Shown here one piece after another: positions 1 to 6,462 of a stretch of DNA of 62,042 nucleotides. A model generated the notes under the pieces. That model had not been told where the DNA came from. It saw only the letters and a list, made by a program, of their open reading frames with translations, and did no database searches. Numbering within the stretch: position 1 is the first letter of the stretch; each line of letters starts with the position of its first letter. The position numbers were made by a program, and so were the translations under genes. Origin of the DNA: a plasmid; the sequence record NZ_CP117297.1. One strand, 5' to 3'.

Positions 1-1110
1 ATGACAAAATCAACAAATTTTAATTACTATGAAGCAGATAACGTATATGGAGCCTTATTTTTCCAGTTTCCTAAGGTATTAATGTATGGCGAGCAATATA
101 AACATTTAAGCAGTGATGCTAAATTGGCTTATATGGTACTGAAAGACCGGCTCGAGTACTCTTTGCGCAACAACTGGGTTGATGAAGAAGGACACGTCTA
201 TTTTACTTTTACCAATCAAGAACTCGAAAATTTATTTAATTGCCATAATCAAAAAGTCGTCAAAATAAAAAAAGAACTCGAAACCTCTCATTTGCTGATG
301 CAAAAACAACTGGGCTTTAACCCAAAGACTAAAAAGAATGAACCGAATCGCTTATATCTGTCCAAGCTCGATGTGAAAGCAACCGATGTCTATTTACGCG
401 GTGAAGATAGCCCAAAAGTGTCTCAAACCCTTGCTACAAGCGGAAATGTGAAAATCACACTTCCGCAGGAGACCGCTCAAACCCTTGCTACAAGCGGAAA
501 TGTGAAAATCACACTTCCGCATAAGTCCGTTGACGAGACCGCTCAAACCCTTGCTACAAGCGGAAATGTGAAAATCACACACAATCTATATAAAGACTTT
601 AAAAACATAGATACTAATAGATACGACATAGATACTCAAAAGTTGGACTTTTCCACAGCCAATTTTTCACCAGCTGAAATTGAAGCCCAAAATCGGGATT
701 TAGTAAAACATGCTGATGAGTTTTTAACTGACGAAGATAATGGGTTGCCGGTCTTCTTAGAGCCAGAAACAGTGCAACTACTTAGCTTTTGGTGCCGTAC
801 CCCACAACAAATGCGGCGCTTTATTGGTATTATCTTAAACGCCAAATATGCTGTTGAAAAAGAACATAAGGATTTAGGCGTATGGATTCTATTAGATGAC
901 CCTGATTTAAAAAAAATGATGACCAAAACGTTAAGACGCTATTTTAATGCCCTAAGAAGCGATGAGAAACATATCAAGAATGTTGAGAACTACCTGTACG
1001 GCACTATGCAAAACCTATTTGATGTTTGGTGGAACCAACAAGCAGCTAGAGACTATGCGGCCAAGCACCCTAAAGAACAAAATATTGATAACGAGCGTTT
1101 TTGGAATTAA
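1..1110 (+). CDS. Plasmid replication initiator, RepA_N-like family
   Basis: 369 aa with a conserved N-terminal RepA_N-like region. The coding sequence carries internal tandem repeats, consistent with an origin lying inside rep. An RBS (aaagggag) for the ATG at position 1 sits at window end 62027-62034. Confidence 0.75.
   Translation: MTKSTNFNYYEADNVYGALFFQFPKVLMYGEQYKHLSSDAKLAYMVLKDRLEYSLRNNWVDEEGHVYFTFTNQELENLFNCHNQKVVKIKKELETSHLLMQKQLGFNPKTKKNEPNRLYLSKLDVKATDVYLRGEDSPKVSQTLATSGNVKITLPQETAQTLATSGNVKITLPHKSVDETAQTLATSGNVKITHNLYKDFKNIDTNRYDIDTQKLDFSTANFSPAEIEAQNRDLVKHADEFLTDEDNGLPVFLEPETVQLLSFWCRTPQQMRRFIGIILNAKYAVEKEHKDLGVWILLDDPDLKKMMTKTLRRYFNALRSDEKHIKNVENYLYGTMQNLFDVWWNQQAARDYAAKHPKEQNIDNERFWN
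418..582. repeat. Three tandem direct repeats inside the rep coding region; candidate iterons/origin
   Basis: A conserved 37-bp core (caaacccttgctacaagcggaaatgtgaaaatcacac) occurs at 424-460, 479-515 and 544-580. It encodes a repeated peptide TLATSGNVKIT. Confidence 0.6.
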
Positions 1111-1249
1111 ACGTCATATTAGCTCATTTAAGCCGTTTTAAGTGCTACATGCATAAATTATATTAAAATCGCTTAGAAGCAAAAATAGGCACCTTGAGTG
1201 GCTAAATTGGCGATGACTGAACTAAGGGAATGTGAAAGGAGCTTTTTAA

Positions 1250-1447
1250 ATGACCAAATCCAGCAAAGAAGTCGAAACAATTGATCAATTGTTGGCTGAC
1301 CCATGGACAGTCGATATTCAAGCCCTTTGGGAGCAAGCAGCCCATAATCCAGATCCTGATAAACGCAAGCTGTTTGACGCGTTACACACTTATGTTTTAG
1401 ATAAACGCCAAGAAAGAATTATCAACGAAAAGCATTTTGTGAATTAA
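1250..1447 (+). CDS. Small conserved protein (65 aa), paralog of 2885-3079; candidate antitoxin/partner of the downstream Doc/Fic-like gene
   Basis: Shares the motif PDPxKRKxxDALxTYxLDKRQxxxIxxKxFV with the ORF at 2885-3079. Ends 50 bp upstream of the Fic/Doc-like gene. Confidence 0.5.
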   Translation: MTKSSKEVETIDQLLADPWTVDIQALWEQAAHNPDPDKRKLFDALHTYVLDKRQERIINEKHFVN

Positions 1448-1497
1448 CATGGTCAGGTCAAATAATCAGTGATTGAAATAAAAAGGAGGCACAAAAT

Positions 1498-2244
1498 ATG
1501 GCTAAGACACGAACATATATGGACAAGTATAAATTCACAGTTGCAGAAAACCAGCGGTTTGCCCGAGCAAATTTTACCAAGTTAGTGCATACTAATGCTC
1601 GCTTTGAAGGCGTAAATACCACTTTACCGCAAACACAAACCATTATGGACGGCATGAGTGTGGCGGGTGTTCCTGTTGAGGATATTTTGACAATTGTTAA
1701 CTTAAAGCGTGGGTGGCAATATATCACTGCTCAAAATGCCCCTTTAACGTTAACCATGGAAAAACAAATCAATAAGATTGTGGCAGCGGAAGACGCCTTA
1801 GTACCAGGAGAATTACGGCAAGGGAAAGGGGGAGTTGATTTAGGCAGTGAAGACTTTTTTGAACCGCCTTTAATTAACGAAAAACAAGAACAATCCTTTT
1901 TACAAAAAATCTTGGCTGATCCACAAATGACGACCACTGATAAAGCATTGACTGTCATATATCATAATATGCGTCAACAAATTTTTTGGGACGGAAACAA
2001 GAGGACGGCAACTTTAAGTGCCAATAAAATTATGATTGACGGTGGTGCTGGCTTAATCAATGTCCCATTAGATAAGTGGGATCAATGGAACGAACTAATT
2101 GCCAATTATTATCGGACTAATGACATGACTAAAATTAAACAGTGGACATATGATAATGGTATTCAAGGATTACAAATTCGAGCAAACAAAAAATTAAGTG
2201 CTAATGAATTGAACCAGATGTACAAGCAACTAAAAAACGGATAA
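1498..2244 (+). CDS. Fic/Doc family protein with degenerate Doc-like motif
   Basis: 248 aa. The motif QIFWDGNKRTAT aligns to the Fic/Doc core HxFx(D/E)GN(G/K)R, with the His replaced by Gln and a Lys as in Doc. RBS aaaggagg precedes the ATG. Confidence 0.6.
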   Translation: MAKTRTYMDKYKFTVAENQRFARANFTKLVHTNARFEGVNTTLPQTQTIMDGMSVAGVPVEDILTIVNLKRGWQYITAQNAPLTLTMEKQINKIVAAEDALVPGELRQGKGGVDLGSEDFFEPPLINEKQEQSFLQKILADPQMTTTDKALTVIYHNMRQQIFWDGNKRTATLSANKIMIDGGAGLINVPLDKWDQWNELIANYYRTNDMTKIKQWTYDNGIQGLQIRANKKLSANELNQMYKQLKNG

Positions 2245-2569
2245 ATTAGAACTTAAATTAGTTGAAGACGAGATTATTAAAAGAACCCAAAACCAGCTCA
2301 AAGACTTTGCTAAAAACAATCTATCGGAATGTTGATAACGAGCGCACTTGGGGTTAAAACGCCGTATAAGCTTATTTAAGACACTTTAAGCCAAATTGGC
2401 ATAGATTATACTAGATTGTATTTTAAATTCGTCTCTGCACGTTTTAGAGGCCAAATATTAGATACTATTGAAAAAGGGTAACTAACATGTAGCTTTCGAA
2501 GACTTATACAATTGAAGTGGTACTCAAGAGGTAGTATGATGGTAGTAGTTAAGGGGGAGTGAGACGATC

Positions 2570-2797
2570 ATGGCAGTTAAAGAAAAGAAACGGGTACAAG
2601 TTAAAATTGATAAAGACTTGGCTGATAATACGGAAGCAGTTTTAAACGAGTTGGGTCTAAATCCAACCACAGCGATTAACATGTTTTATAAGCGGATCGT
2701 AGCGGAAGCAGCGTTACCGTTTAAACCAGCTCTAAGCGAAGCGGAAAGAGCTAATTTACGCTTTTTAAAGGCGACCGAAGGGACGTCACCGAGTTAA
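2570..2797 (+). CDS. RelB/DinJ-family ribbon-helix-helix antitoxin-like protein
   Basis: 75 aa. The N-terminus (VKIDKDLADNTEAVLNELGLNPTTAINMFYKRIVAEAALPF) matches the DinJ/RelB antitoxin pattern. No RelE/YafQ partner follows. Confidence 0.6.
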   Translation: MAVKEKKRVQVKIDKDLADNTEAVLNELGLNPTTAINMFYKRIVAEAALPFKPALSEAERANLRFLKATEGTSPS

Positions 2798-2884
2798 AAG
2801 ACGCTAAAGGAGTCAGCGATTGGCTCAATGATCCAGATGAAGACTAATGGCTTATCAGATTAAATAAATTAATAACTTGGGAGT

Positions 2885-3079
2885 GTGATTAACATGAAAG
2901 ACACAATTACAATCAATGACTTTTTTGAAATCGCCAAAAAAATTGATTTGAAAGATTTACTTGATAAATCATTACATGAGCCAGATCCAGAAAAGCGTAA
3001 AGTATATGATGCTTTGTATACCTACTTTTTAGATAAAAGGCAAGATGAGGTTATTAAGCGAAAGGACTTTGTCCGTTGA
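2885..3079 (+). CDS. Small conserved protein (64 aa), paralog of 1250-1447; candidate antitoxin/partner of the downstream zeta-like kinase
   Basis: Same PDPxKRK..DALYTY.LDKRQ motif. Its stop overlaps the TTG start of the next gene (TTGA, 4-bp overlap), suggesting translational coupling. Confidence 0.5.
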   Translation: MINMKDTITINDFFEIAKKIDLKDLLDKSLHEPDPEKRKVYDALYTYFLDKRQDEVIKRKDFVR

Positions 3080-3630
3080 TAGATAAACCCCAATATATTA
3101 TTGTTGCTGGTATTAACGGAGCAGGTAAGAGTACGCTGTACGATACATTTCCCATATTGTTTGATAAAACAATACGGATTAATGCTGATGAGATTTTACG
3201 ACAAATGGGTGGCGATTGGCATAAAGACAGCGACAATTTAAAAGCCATGCGTGAAGAAATAAAGCAACTACACTATTCCTTAGATAACCGACAAAGTATT
3301 CATGTAGAAACGACACTTGCTGGAAGAGGTAAGGCTCAACTAAATTTGATTGATAAAGCGCATGAAAATGGCTTTGAAGTGACTTTATTGTATGTTGCCC
3401 TACGAGATGAAAATTTAGCTATTAAGAGAGTAGAGGATCGGGTACAAAAGGGTGGACATGGTGTGCCATCAGAAATAATCAAAAATGATTTGATCCATTT
3501 CCCTTGGATAAATCAAAATATTAATTGTTCAGAAAATGTGCAAAAACAGTTAAAAAATTTTGCAGATCATAACCCAGAAGTTAAGCTAAAAAATGATCCT
3601 GAAAACAAAAACGATCGGCCTAGTTATTAG
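3076..3630 (+). CDS. Zeta-toxin-family-like P-loop kinase (AAA/NTPase) protein
   Basis: 184 aa. Walker A motif GINGAGKST near the N-terminus. Size and layout resemble short zeta-toxin/UNAG-kinase homologs on Firmicutes plasmids. TTG start. Confidence 0.5.
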   Translation: MIDKPQYIIVAGINGAGKSTLYDTFPILFDKTIRINADEILRQMGGDWHKDSDNLKAMREEIKQLHYSLDNRQSIHVETTLAGRGKAQLNLIDKAHENGFEVTLLYVALRDENLAIKRVEDRVQKGGHGVPSEIIKNDLIHFPWINQNINCSENVQKQLKNFADHNPEVKLKNDPENKNDRPSY

Positions 3631-3898
3631 GTTGATCGTTTTTGAATTTGTTCGGTTTATGGGCGTTAACGTAATTAGCAAATATTTTTAAAAGTTCTTC
3701 GGTTTGTTCGACTGATAAGTTATCAGCCTGAAAGTATTTTTCGAGTAAGGCTCCTTTTTGAATTAGTCGGCGAGAACGGGCTTTACGGGCTTGCCGATTT
3801 TCATAGTATTTAGATTGCCGTAATTTAAAATCTTCCCGCTCAATTTTTTGTTTTAAACGCGCTTGCTGCTCGACTAATTTTTCATATTGATTAGACAT
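3620..3898 (-). CDS. Putative mobilization accessory protein (basic, coiled-coil)
   Basis: 92 aa, lysine/arginine-rich. Divergent from the relaxase gene across the putative oriT. Confidence 0.3.
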   Translation of the reverse strand: MSNQYEKLVEQQARLKQKIEREDFKLRQSKYYENRQARKARSRRLIQKGALLEKYFQADNLSVEQTEELLKIFANYVNAHKPNKFKNDQPNN

Positions 3899-3920
3899 GG
3901 AATTTCCCCATCTCGTATGG

Positions 3921-4169
3921 CTAATGATCTACGGACTTTACCTTTAAAAATTCAGAAAATTGCTTAGCTAAAAGCTTAATCTGATCGTTAGACAAATTAG
4001 CATAATCTAAATTGGCTTGACTGATGATTTGTTTACCTAGCCGTTGTTCAATCTTATTTTTTTCGTCCTTAATTTTTTGATTAAGGGCTTTTAATTTAGC
4101 TTCTTGTTTTTCTAAGTTACTTTGAGACATAACGATCTCTCCAATCATATTAGAAATAATCACTGACAC
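3921..4169 (-). CDS. Putative MobC-like relaxosome accessory protein
   Basis: 82 aa coiled-coil protein immediately divergent from oriT/mobA, as in RSF1010-type mob regions. Confidence 0.3.
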   Translation of the reverse strand: MSVIISNMIGEIVMSQSNLEKQEAKLKALNQKIKDEKNKIEQRLGKQIISQANLDYANLSNDQIKLLAKQFSEFLKVKSVDH

Positions 4170-4269
4170 TATATCATAAGGGAAACGTTAAGTCAAAGTA
4201 TAAAATTTGAAATAGCGAAGCGGAAGGCATACACTAAGTTAAAGTTAAGGGAATCAGAAGACCGAGTGA

Positions 4270-4320: not shown

Positions 4321-4398
4321 TGCTAAAATCTTGTATCAGAAGTCGCCGTTGGCGACAACAAAATCAACCAATAGATCCAAAGAAAGACGGTGACTAGT

Positions 4399-6462
4399 AT
4401 GGCAATTTTTCATATGAGTTTTAGTAATATTAGTGCTGGGAAAGGACGAAGTGCCATTGCCAGTGCCGCTTATCGAAGTGGTGAAAAATTATTTGATGAT
4501 CAAGAAGGTCGCCACTATTTCTATGCTCGGTCAGTTATGCCAGAGAGTTTTATTTTAACTCCTAAAAATGCGCCAGCATGGGCAAGTGATCGAGAAAAAT
4601 TATGGAACGAAGTAGAAAGAAAAGATCGGCGAGCAAATTCTCGGTATGCAAAAGAGTTTAACGTGGCTTTGCCAGTTGAACTAAGCGAAGATGAACAGAA
4701 AGAATTACTGACAAAATACGTGCAAGAGAATTTTGTTGATCAAGGCATGGTGGCTGATGTGGCAATTCATAGAGATCACCCAGACAATCCGCACGCACAT
4801 GTGATGTTAACTAACCGACCATTTAACCCAGACGGGACATGGGGAATCAAGAGTAAAAAACAATATATTTTAGATGAGAATGGCAATAAAATGTATACCG
4901 GAACTAGCAAGTACCCTAAGAGTAGAAAGATACTGATGGTCGATTGGGATAAGAAAGAAAAAATAATTGAATGGCGTCATAATTGGGCAGTTAGCGTCAA
5001 TCAGGTTTTAGAGCAAAAAAATATTCCGGATCGAATCAGTGAAAAATCCTTTGAAAATCAAGGAATAGATGAAATTCCAACTCAACATGAGGGAATCAAT
5101 AGTAAGCGGCATGAAAGAAGAAAATTTAATCAACAAGTTAGCGCACAAAGAAGCGCCCAAGCTAAATATCATAATCTTGACGAAAAGATAAGAAATCATG
5201 AACATTTTGACGCGTTAACTGACGAGCTATCATTCTCTGAAAAACACACAATTAGTCATCTAAGTCAGCAATTGAAAGCCTATGTCGATTTAGAACATTT
5301 AGACGATAAACAGCGCATGCTATTTAATTGGAAAAACAGCTTATTAATTAAACACGCGGTTGGTGAAGATGTGACCAAGCAATTACTCACGATTGACCAG
5401 CAGACCACATCACTAGCACAAGCTAACCAGTTGTTAAATAAAGTGGTGGAACGAGTAACGAAACAGCTTTATCCGGAACTTAATTTTAAACAGACAACCG
5501 CAGCTGAACGACGGGAACTAATTAAAGAAACTAATAGTGAACAAACGATTTTTAAGGGTAGCGAATTGGCAGAACGGTTAGCGGATATTCGAAGTGACTT
5601 ATTAACCCAGCAATTATTGACGTTTACCAAGCGGCCATATACCAGCTGGCAGTTAGTTAATCAGCAGGCCCAAACAATTGAGAAGCAATTAACCACGGTA
5701 CTAGCCAAACATGGTCACCAGTTAGACGATTTGAGGCATACTGATCGGGGCATGCTAGCCGCTTATCAACCTAACGAACTCGAATTCATTTCGAAAGCGG
5801 TGAAAAATTTACGGGTCATGCGGGAAGTTAAAGCCGTAGTTCAAACCCAATACAACAGCATTCTAACGACTGCTTTTCCGGACAGTGACCTGGATAAGCT
5901 AGAGACGATTGATAAGGAGCAAATCTATACCGCTGTGGTTTACTATGACCCAGAATTAAAGCCATTAAGTGCCGATGATCTTAGGCAATTGCAACAGCAG
6001 CCACCGGTCGTCTTTACTAGTCAGCAACACCAAGCCGGTTTAAATTACCTGTTAGGTAAAATGGAATTAAAAGATATTCAGGATCATCGACTGCAACGGG
6101 TCTTAAAACATGATGGCACCCGGCAACTATTTATTGGCGAATGTGGCCAAGATCCTAAGTTGGATCACCAACAAATTGAAATGGTGCAAACCCGTTTGAA
6201 ACAACAGACAATGCGCTTTGATCAATATAAGCAAGCTCAAGTTAAGGACTATCAGGCCATTAATTATTACCCAACTAGCCCGAAAAACTACCTGACTAAT
6301 ATTTTGGACGAAGCCTTAATGACCATTTTATATGCGAAAAATACGGACTATCTAAGAAAACAGCAACTACGCGGTTTAAAAGAGACCGAGTGGGCAATGA
6401 CGAAAAAGCAGCGGCAACACCAAACCCGGAATCGGCATGAAGATGGGGGTATGCACTTGTAA
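4399..6462 (+). CDS. mobA: MobA/MobL-family (MobQ-type) conjugative relaxase
   Basis: N-terminal relaxase domain starting MAIFHMSF. Histidine triad [13 protein letters not shown] is present. Long coiled-coil C-terminal half. Confidence 0.85.

Follow-up and report, generated by a model that had tools for sequence, protein, structure and literature searches.

A narrow family of small Lactobacillales proteins, probably cognate to short zeta-like kinases, and its adjacency to a Fic-like gene in a plasmid cassette slot

Introduction

In the omega-epsilon-zeta system of pSM19035 and in PezAT, a small helical protein is encoded directly upstream of, and coupled to, a P-loop kinase of the Zeta_toxin family, and such modules occupy plasmid sites near replication functions as well as chromosomal ones. 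The kinases of these systems are toxic, phosphorylating UDP-N-acetylglucosamine, and their antitoxins block the ATP site. A locus of similar arrangement lies in a 62,042-nucleotide (nt) stretch of the plasmid sequence record NZ_CP117297.1 (the window, to whose full length all open reading frame (ORF) coordinates refer), where two related genes for unnamed proteins of about 60–70 amino acids (aa), here called small1 and small2, precede a Fic/Doc-like gene and a short zeta-like kinase gene, respectively. An earlier note, made from the sequence alone, proposed for the small proteins a modular family of antitoxins or adaptors that serves both kinds of downstream gene. We conclude, with a probability that we put at roughly 0.62, that the small family is cognate to the short zeta-like kinases and that its adjacency to the Fic-like gene results from a cassette swap.

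The likeness to epsilon/zeta extends to a three-gene version with a ribbon-helix-helix (RHH) gene upstream, and to a kinase model whose nearest folds are those of zeta and PezT. Unlike epsilon (~90 aa), the small protein has only 60–70 aa, and no relationship to epsilon or PezA, including the C-terminal domain of the latter, was detectable by sequence or fold; unlike zeta and PezT (~250–290 aa), the present kinases have 185–230 aa and are too divergent for sequence or profile detection; and unlike omega, the upstream RHH protein belongs to RelB/DinJ. The Fic/Doc-type core with a Doc-like Lys (GNKR) and a small ORF upstream likewise recall Phd/Doc and FicT/FicA, from which the locus departs in a family-wide replacement of the catalytic His by Gln, in an upstream protein that is not Phd/YefM-like and has no FicA motif, and in Fic-like homologs that stand alone on chromosomes. 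As in RelBE and DinJ-YafQ there is a RelB/DinJ member, a relative of which is coupled on sister plasmids to a PemK/MazF-like, toxin-like gene, whereas a RelE/YafQ partner is absent and relB, frameshifted in the window, precedes the small–kinase pair. Finally, kinase-less small genes under purifying selection on small plasmids of the co-resident type resemble orphan antitoxins (chromosomal ccd versus F-plasmid ccd), a putative neutralisation in trans by the small genes being deduced from their distribution.

If the small protein does inhibit these kinases, the zeta-toxin superfamily would gain a new family of antitoxins, and the puzzle of Lactobacillus plasmid 'zeta toxins with no antitoxin' (PMC6662855) would be answered. 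Hundreds of plasmids from lactobacilli used in food fermentation or as probiotics carry the module or orphan relatives of it, which thus bear on plasmid stability, incompatibility and vector design. The locus also documents a cassette-exchange slot with conserved flanks downstream of repA, and it cautions that an adjacency as conserved as that of small1 and the Fic-like gene (~750 plasmids) can reflect one recombinant lineage rather than functional coupling.

Results and discussion

A small-protein family paired with zeta-like kinases

All five ORFs described in the earlier note are present where it placed them (Table 1). Its view that small1 and small2 are paralogous and share a motif is confirmed, the two proteins being 43% identical across 61 aligned residues (E 6e-19), as is its remark that they belong to no named family, neither having a match in Pfam, NCBIfam, PADLOC or PHROGs. 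With a profile built from both, 247 clusters at 90% identity were recovered, none of which has a name or a Pfam domain, and an exhaustive search of 1.84 billion proteins yielded 68 representatives at 50% identity, none of them named. The small proteins are a narrow, unannotated Lactobacillales family of ~60–70 aa, predicted to fold into three helices, and no characterisation of the gene was found in the literature on COG4185, on plca36 toxin-antitoxin (TA) systems or on Lactobacillus zeta/Fic modules. The small2 gene more probably starts at its ATG than at the upstream GTG (Table 1), in agreement with the calls of the Prokaryotic Genome Annotation Pipeline (PGAP) in relatives. Related loci were searched with a 6-sequence alignment and 80 were kept; because these are skewed to the small1 and small3 subtypes, small2-type loci were sampled via plasmid searches only.

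Weak profile matches (E 3e-9 to 5e-4) were also seen to long proteins with 4–10 repeats of the NPDPEVQRVYA type (P0147, P0180–P0182), and in its helix-DPD-helix core the small protein is similar to HEAT-like repeat units. The likeness to the repeat proteins is probably a convergence of the helical-hairpin motif.

The window kinase scores 50.3 bits against Pfam Zeta_toxin (PF06414; cut-off 22.3), nearly all of its homologs carry precomputed Zeta_toxin matches, and it begins at a TTG whose overlap with the stop of small2 reads TTGA, so that the zeta-like P-loop kinase with a GINGAGKST motif and coupled start proposed earlier is borne out. The same pairing recurs at much greater distance. Downstream of divergent small members, which share 36–46% identity with the window proteins, plasmid-like contigs as well as chromosomes carry a Zeta_toxin/AAA_33 gene, as in the small–kinase pairs of P0127 (locus L009), P0154 (L019) and P0139 (L015–18), the last of these chromosomal and located between an amidase gene and yibE/F; in P0126 (L005–8) there is a small gene with only a 37-aa kinase stub. 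The kinases of the divergent pairs are ~56% identical to the plasmid kinase and their small proteins ~43% identical to small2, a pattern that would be expected of pairs diverging together. Junctions between small gene and kinase are always overlaps or gaps of 1–2 nt (TTGA, ATGA, TAGTG, TAA-C-ATG), including those of L009, L015, L019 and L031, and the kinase linked to small1, ~66% identical to the one linked to small2, begins 1 nt past the stop of small1 at loci that preserve the kinase start. The pairing of small gene and zeta-like kinase is thus conserved, tightly coupled and apparently co-diverging in distant relatives. As the recurring coupled partner on both plasmids and chromosomes is a kinase, an antitoxin that is epsilon-like but not homologous to epsilon is the best reading of the small protein, and the family probably represents a new type of antitoxin for zeta-like kinases.

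A model of an intact 226-aa kinase homolog (predicted local distance difference test score, pLDDT, 87) found the zeta toxin 1gvn_B (E 1.6e-7, template modelling (TM) score 0.66) and PezT 2p5t_B as its best fold matches, and the Pfam match and these nearest folds together justify the term 'zeta-like' at the level of family and fold. The distance from validated zeta toxins, the nearly equal scores of generic kinases in the fold search and the existence of chromosomal copies would also fit a metabolic or nucleotide/sugar kinase with the small protein as its regulatory or stabilising subunit, the two genes travelling as cargo. We regard this as very unlikely, given a Zeta_toxin score far above threshold, an operon headed by a gene of the RelB/DinJ antitoxin family, a plasmid slot shared with classical TA cassettes (relB plus a PemK-like gene, for example), and a kinase that is often pseudogenised while the small gene is retained.

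Kinases following small1 are disrupted in 11 of 15 species and intact in the other 4, and many kinase entries in databases are truncated. The contrast with the Fic-like gene, intact in 26 of 27 cases (p 3e-6), is as might be expected for a costly kinase. The window kinase itself carries an in-frame 126-base-pair (bp) deletion after nt 3468 (after GGHGVP), which takes 42 residues out of a conserved part of the core (..IKKRYxQSxxNL..) and shortens the protein to 184 aa from 226 aa; DNA identity to relatives falls from ~97% to ~90% across the junction. A 99% identical 184-aa variant occurs elsewhere (P0306). With this segment lost, the window kinase is therefore probably inactive.

The Fic-like gene and its adjacency to small1

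The product of the gene downstream of small1 scores 23.9 bits against Pfam Fic (PF02661), just under the 24-bit cut-off, with a weak match to the Doc family TIGR01550; many homologs have precomputed PF02661 matches, and residues 27–192 align weakly to FICD (E 0.08). Its core, QIFWDGNKR, fails the HxFx(D/E)GN(G/K)R pattern at the His, and the degenerate core with His changed to Gln and a Doc-like Lys that had been noted earlier can be read directly in the sequence (QIFWDGNKRTAT; Table 1). Gln occupies the catalytic His position in all 25 diverse homologs compared and in all 27 readable species loci of what is a large Lactobacillaceae family (875 matches). A TNARFEG element aligns to the autoinhibitory TVAIEGN of FICD and, at ~220–250 aa with this N-terminal element, the protein is nearer to class II Fic proteins than to the 126-aa Doc, resembling the self-contained, autoinhibited members of that class. 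It is probably non-toxic and self-contained.

What follows small1 was surveyed at small1-type loci of 48 species, with one locus per species: a Fic-like gene at 30, a zeta-like kinase of the full-length type at 15 (intact at 4) and neither at 3. Two distinct small1 protein sequences were each found with both partners, which means that small1 does not co-vary with its neighbour. The ratio of nonsynonymous to synonymous substitution rates (dN/dS) of small1 is 0.12 beside the kinase versus 0.28 beside Fic, indicating purifying selection in both settings. All 6 loci with a premature stop in small1 are Fic loci, and in four of these species (L023, L057, L063, L067) the Fic-like gene is intact. On chromosomes, no small-family gene was found within 3 kb of Fic-like homologs (best E 0.77, against 6e-29 to 6e-30 for the window genes as positive controls); one such homolog lies in a LemA-TPM-FicQ-Fic operon and another follows the S component gene of an energy-coupling factor (ECF) riboflavin transporter. 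The former arrangement, on a Schleiferilactobacillus chromosome (L103–L105, 1593–4487), consists of LemA, TPM_phosphatase, the His-less Fic-like gene and a canonical Fic (265 aa, Pfam Fic 68 bits), and the His-less protein may there work together with its catalytically competent paralog.

The small1–Fic half of the window is present in ~750 plasmid records, all at ≥80% DNA identity, which points to one successful lineage. If one small protein neutralised the Fic/Doc-like protein as well as the kinase in the manner of a modular antitoxin or adaptor, perhaps by covering the ATP site that either enzyme type uses, this would account for an identical small1 preceding either gene, for the constant 50-nt small1–Fic spacing (49 nt once) across 30 species, for the intactness of small1 at 24 of the 30 Fic loci under its dN/dS of 0.28, and for the retention of the pair in so many plasmids. 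This scheme is nonetheless distinctly unlikely. The Fic-like family never has the catalytic His and possesses its own FICD-like element; its members stand alone on chromosomes and are still found intact at loci with a broken small1; the constraint on small1 is weaker beside Fic than beside the kinase; no inhibitory motif of the FicA type, (S/T)xxxE(G/N), is present in the small proteins, nor do these have a Phd/YefM match in Pfam or NCBIfam searches; and while the small1–Fic pairs derive from a single closely related plasmid lineage, the kinase pairing spans the whole family, the adjacency to Fic being explained by exchange of cassettes with shared flanks. Of the modular scheme, the part that stands is the occurrence of the same small protein with interchangeable downstream genes; a role of small1 as a Fic antitoxin or adaptor is not supported, as an identical small1 lies beside either gene and the Fic-like protein is His-less, stand-alone and intact next to a broken small1. 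The survey of neighbours that the note had called for came out divided, with a family-wide association for the kinase and one confined to a single plasmid lineage for Fic.

Cassette exchange downstream of repA

Genes of unrelated kinds end in the same ~30 codons (...QKQLKDFAxxNPEIKPKNxPENKNDRPSY*), followed by a hairpin. This tail and hairpin are common to the kinases linked to small2 and to small1, the 273-aa forms of the Fic-like protein, which arise in other plasmids where the tail is fused in frame to Fic, and a 168-aa PemK/MazF-like gene. Being shared by unrelated genes, the tail defines a slot between itself and repA that holds at least four alternative contents: small1 with kinase, small1 with His-less Fic, relB with small2 and kinase, and relB with the PemK/MazF-like gene. 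The last gene (L109 697–1203, L110 2114–2620) has no Pfam match and an 11-nt overlap with its relB, which shows ~85% DNA identity to the relB of the three-gene operon, an apparently unusual RelB–MazF-like pairing.

In the window two slot contents stand in tandem, because two RepA_N backbones recombined, with a remnant of a second repA 3' end between them. The Fic-like gene is followed by an out-of-frame remnant of the shared tail (LELKLVEDEIIKRTQNQLKDFAKNN), then by the repA remnant with non-coding DNA from downstream of that gene, and then by the relB promoter region (Table 1). We had taken the tail after the Fic-like gene for a specific remnant of a kinase; this was withdrawn, the same tail being found on the PemK-like gene and thus a shared flank of the backbone. 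The window is accordingly read as a recombinant of an intact small1–Fic cassette and a decaying relB–small2–kinase cassette, and the adjacency of small1 to the Fic-like gene would be a by-product of cassette replacement at the plasmid slot, the two not being cognate.

Solitary small genes

Members of the family also occur by themselves. A third small subtype, 54–58% identical to small1, lies ~700–900 nt upstream of a pUCL287-type repA wherever the available sequence suffices (L071–L102, for example L090 3983–4180; also L021 3670–3882 on the minus strand). Its upstream neighbours are usually genes for a tyrosine recombinase and a 121-aa hypothetical protein, the replicons are of the repA/repB(DUF536) kind, and no kinase or Fic gene was present in the retrieved neighbourhood, which reached up to 4 kb to either side. 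The 'RepB' of pUCL287 was considered as the identity of the downstream genes and rejected, RepB being the DUF536 protein of a different replicon. Another small member follows Mob_Pre on 3.2-kb rolling-circle plasmids, as does a small1-type gene in L059. Solitary small genes have a dN/dS of ~0.11, which indicates purifying selection and hence that they are functional. Members on small plasmids with no toxin-like neighbour are not what a purely modular antitoxin would lead one to expect, and the selection on them suggests a value that does not depend on a linked toxin. They would fit either an orphan-antitoxin or anti-addiction role in multi-plasmid hosts or a toxin-independent backbone function.

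Solitary, selected copies near replication functions (pUCL287-type repA, Mob_Pre rolling-circle plasmids), along with a small1 that is always found directly after repA, would be natural for a plasmid-backbone factor, be it a transcriptional, replication or copy-number regulator or a mobilisation accessory, encoded close to the promoter, with the variable downstream genes as cargo. This is an unlikely explanation of the family, considering the chromosomal small–kinase pairs that sit among housekeeping genes far from replicons (L015–17, L005), the translational coupling to the kinase that is conserved in divergent pairs, and a DNA-binding fold or family that neither sequence-family nor fold searches detected. 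A homology to the C-terminal domain of RepA, prompted by a weak match to 4cwc (E 0.18) and a DPDxKK likeness seen by eye, was rejected as well, with hhalign and hmmsearch against the window RepA giving no signal (-3.8 bits, under most shuffles).

A further reading, which we hold to be highly improbable, has the small protein inhibit ATP-using toxins with broad specificity, zeta-like kinases and Doc-like Fic proteins alike, with the solitary copies as anti-addiction devices. If true, these copies would let small plasmids or hosts escape post-segregational killing by co-resident RepA_N plasmids, and the family would be a currency of plasmid–plasmid competition in lactobacilli.

A model for the small–kinase module

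We thus favour a small family cognate to the short zeta-like kinases, and infer an antitoxin function, a toxic kinase and an anti-addiction role. As the most likely mechanism, we posit an epsilon/zeta-like type II TA or addiction module with the kinase of ~185–230 aa as the cognate partner, in which the small protein would be translated first from a shared mRNA and would then bind and block the kinase. On RepA_N plasmids the upstream RelB/DinJ RHH protein would take the omega-like role of repressor. The left edge of the slot is formed by repA (together with small1 or relB) and its right edge by the ~100-bp conserved tail with its bidirectional terminator; replacement of the kinase body by a Fic-fold gene of the chromosomal type would have produced the small1–Fic adjacency. 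Small genes without a kinase would be kept for immunity to kinases encoded elsewhere in multi-plasmid hosts, a reason for their maintenance that is speculative.

Several observations weigh against this model. PFKFB-type and polynucleotide kinases come narrowly behind zeta and PezT in the fold search, and PDB sequence and profile searches with the kinase do not reach zeta or PezT. The small gene is intact and under purifying selection beside broken kinases, beside Fic and alone, and solitary small genes under selection are not predicted by a simple cis-acting antitoxin. That the swap went from kinase to Fic is deduced from the association of the whole family with kinases. Where small1 is broken and the Fic-like gene intact, two of the four loci also carry small2, which could substitute for small1.

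The relB gene and the three-gene operon

The gene upstream of small2, described earlier as a DinJ-like RHH gene, belongs to that family by its scores of 58 bits for TIGR02384 (cut-off 45.65) and 34.4 bits for Pfam RelB (cut-off 22.4). Compared with L001 and L002, it has a 4-bp deletion near 2785 in the window, by which the last 18 aa are frameshifted off (75 versus 93 aa); positions 2788–2847 still encode the missing C-terminus (TELKDAKGVSDWLNDPDED*), out of frame. No RelE/YafQ-type toxin gene is adjacent to the window relB, the next genes being small2 and the kinase.

The relB–small2–kinase operon is found in 77 plasmids at ≥80% coverage and lies directly after repA in plca36 and in an L. hilgardii plasmid. 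An omega-epsilon-zeta-like layout had been suggested for these genes, of which the recurrent three-gene operon holds while the RHH protein is RelB/DinJ and not omega. A metagenomic protein of 128 aa (P0122) is a natural fusion, in one reading frame, of the N-terminal RHH domain of RelB and the C-terminal two-thirds of small2, which recalls the architecture of PezA, a DNA-binding domain plus an antitoxin domain. An operon of RelB, a 192-bp hypothetical gene and a Zeta toxin is listed for plasmids of L. pentosus MP-10 (PMC6662855), where no antitoxin was detected for that zeta toxin; as the report concerns the same operon, the small gene had gone unrecognised.

Direct repeats at 2519–2550 (GGTAGTA-TGAT-GGTAGTAG) overlap the predicted -10 region of relB and are kept in plca36. 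They are a candidate RelB operator.

Layout of the window

The first 6.5 kb of the window form a theta plasmid backbone of the RepA_N type from Lactobacillaceae, with the gene order repA, small1, Fic/Doc-like gene, relB/dinJ, small2, zeta-like kinase, two convergent small genes and mobQ (Table 1). The nearest public records are plasmids of Ligilactobacillus salivarius and Limosilactobacillus gastricus (93–96% identity), in which PGAP labels the small genes 'hypothetical protein'. The five-gene layout of the window occurs in 6 plasmid records only.

Table 1. Features at the beginning of the window, in coordinates of the full 62,042-nt stretch
Feature	Position	Strand	Details
repA, RepA_N-family theta replication initiator	1–1110	+	Pfam RepA_N 117 bits, Bac_RepA_C 132 bits; left slot boundary
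small1, 65 aa, subtype typical after repA on RepA_N plasmids	1250–1447	+	paralogy, profile searches
Fic/Doc-fold gene without catalytic His, 248 aa	1498–2244	+	Q161; QIFWDGNKRTAT, residues 161–172, nt 1978–2013
out-of-frame remnant of shared tail	2246–2320	+	blastn 2246–2310: 81.5%, 65 nt, E 3e-14 to L029 Fic-tail junction
second repA 3' end remnant (VDNERTWG*, 2331–2357) and downstream non-coding DNA	2328–2413	+	75%, 88 nt, E 2e-10 to 1081–1165
relB promoter region as in plca36	from 2519		81.8% to plca36
relB/dinJ, RHH antitoxin/repressor family, frameshifted	2570–2797	+	TIGR02384
small2, 61 aa from ATG (64 aa if GTG 2885), kinase-linked subtype	2894–3079	+	
short zeta-like P-loop kinase, 184 aa	3076–3630	+	Pfam Zeta_toxin; Walker A GINGAGKST 3109–3135
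18-bp-stem hairpin, bidirectional terminator within shared tail; right slot boundary	3606–3644	.	overlaps convergent backbone gene
DUF3847-like backbone gene, convergent, overlaps shared tail	3620–3898	-	
second small convergent gene	3921–4169	-	
mobQ	4390–6462	+	

Within repA, positions 422–580 hold 2.7 tandem copies of a ~57–66-bp unit encoding the repeated peptide (ET)AQTLATSGNVKITLP, and these are followed at 605–636 by three copies of a 10-bp repeat. The repeats at 422–580 may be the internal origin or iteron repeats typical of RepA_N replicons. The G+C content of positions 1–4200 is 0.367, versus 0.406 across the 62-kb window.

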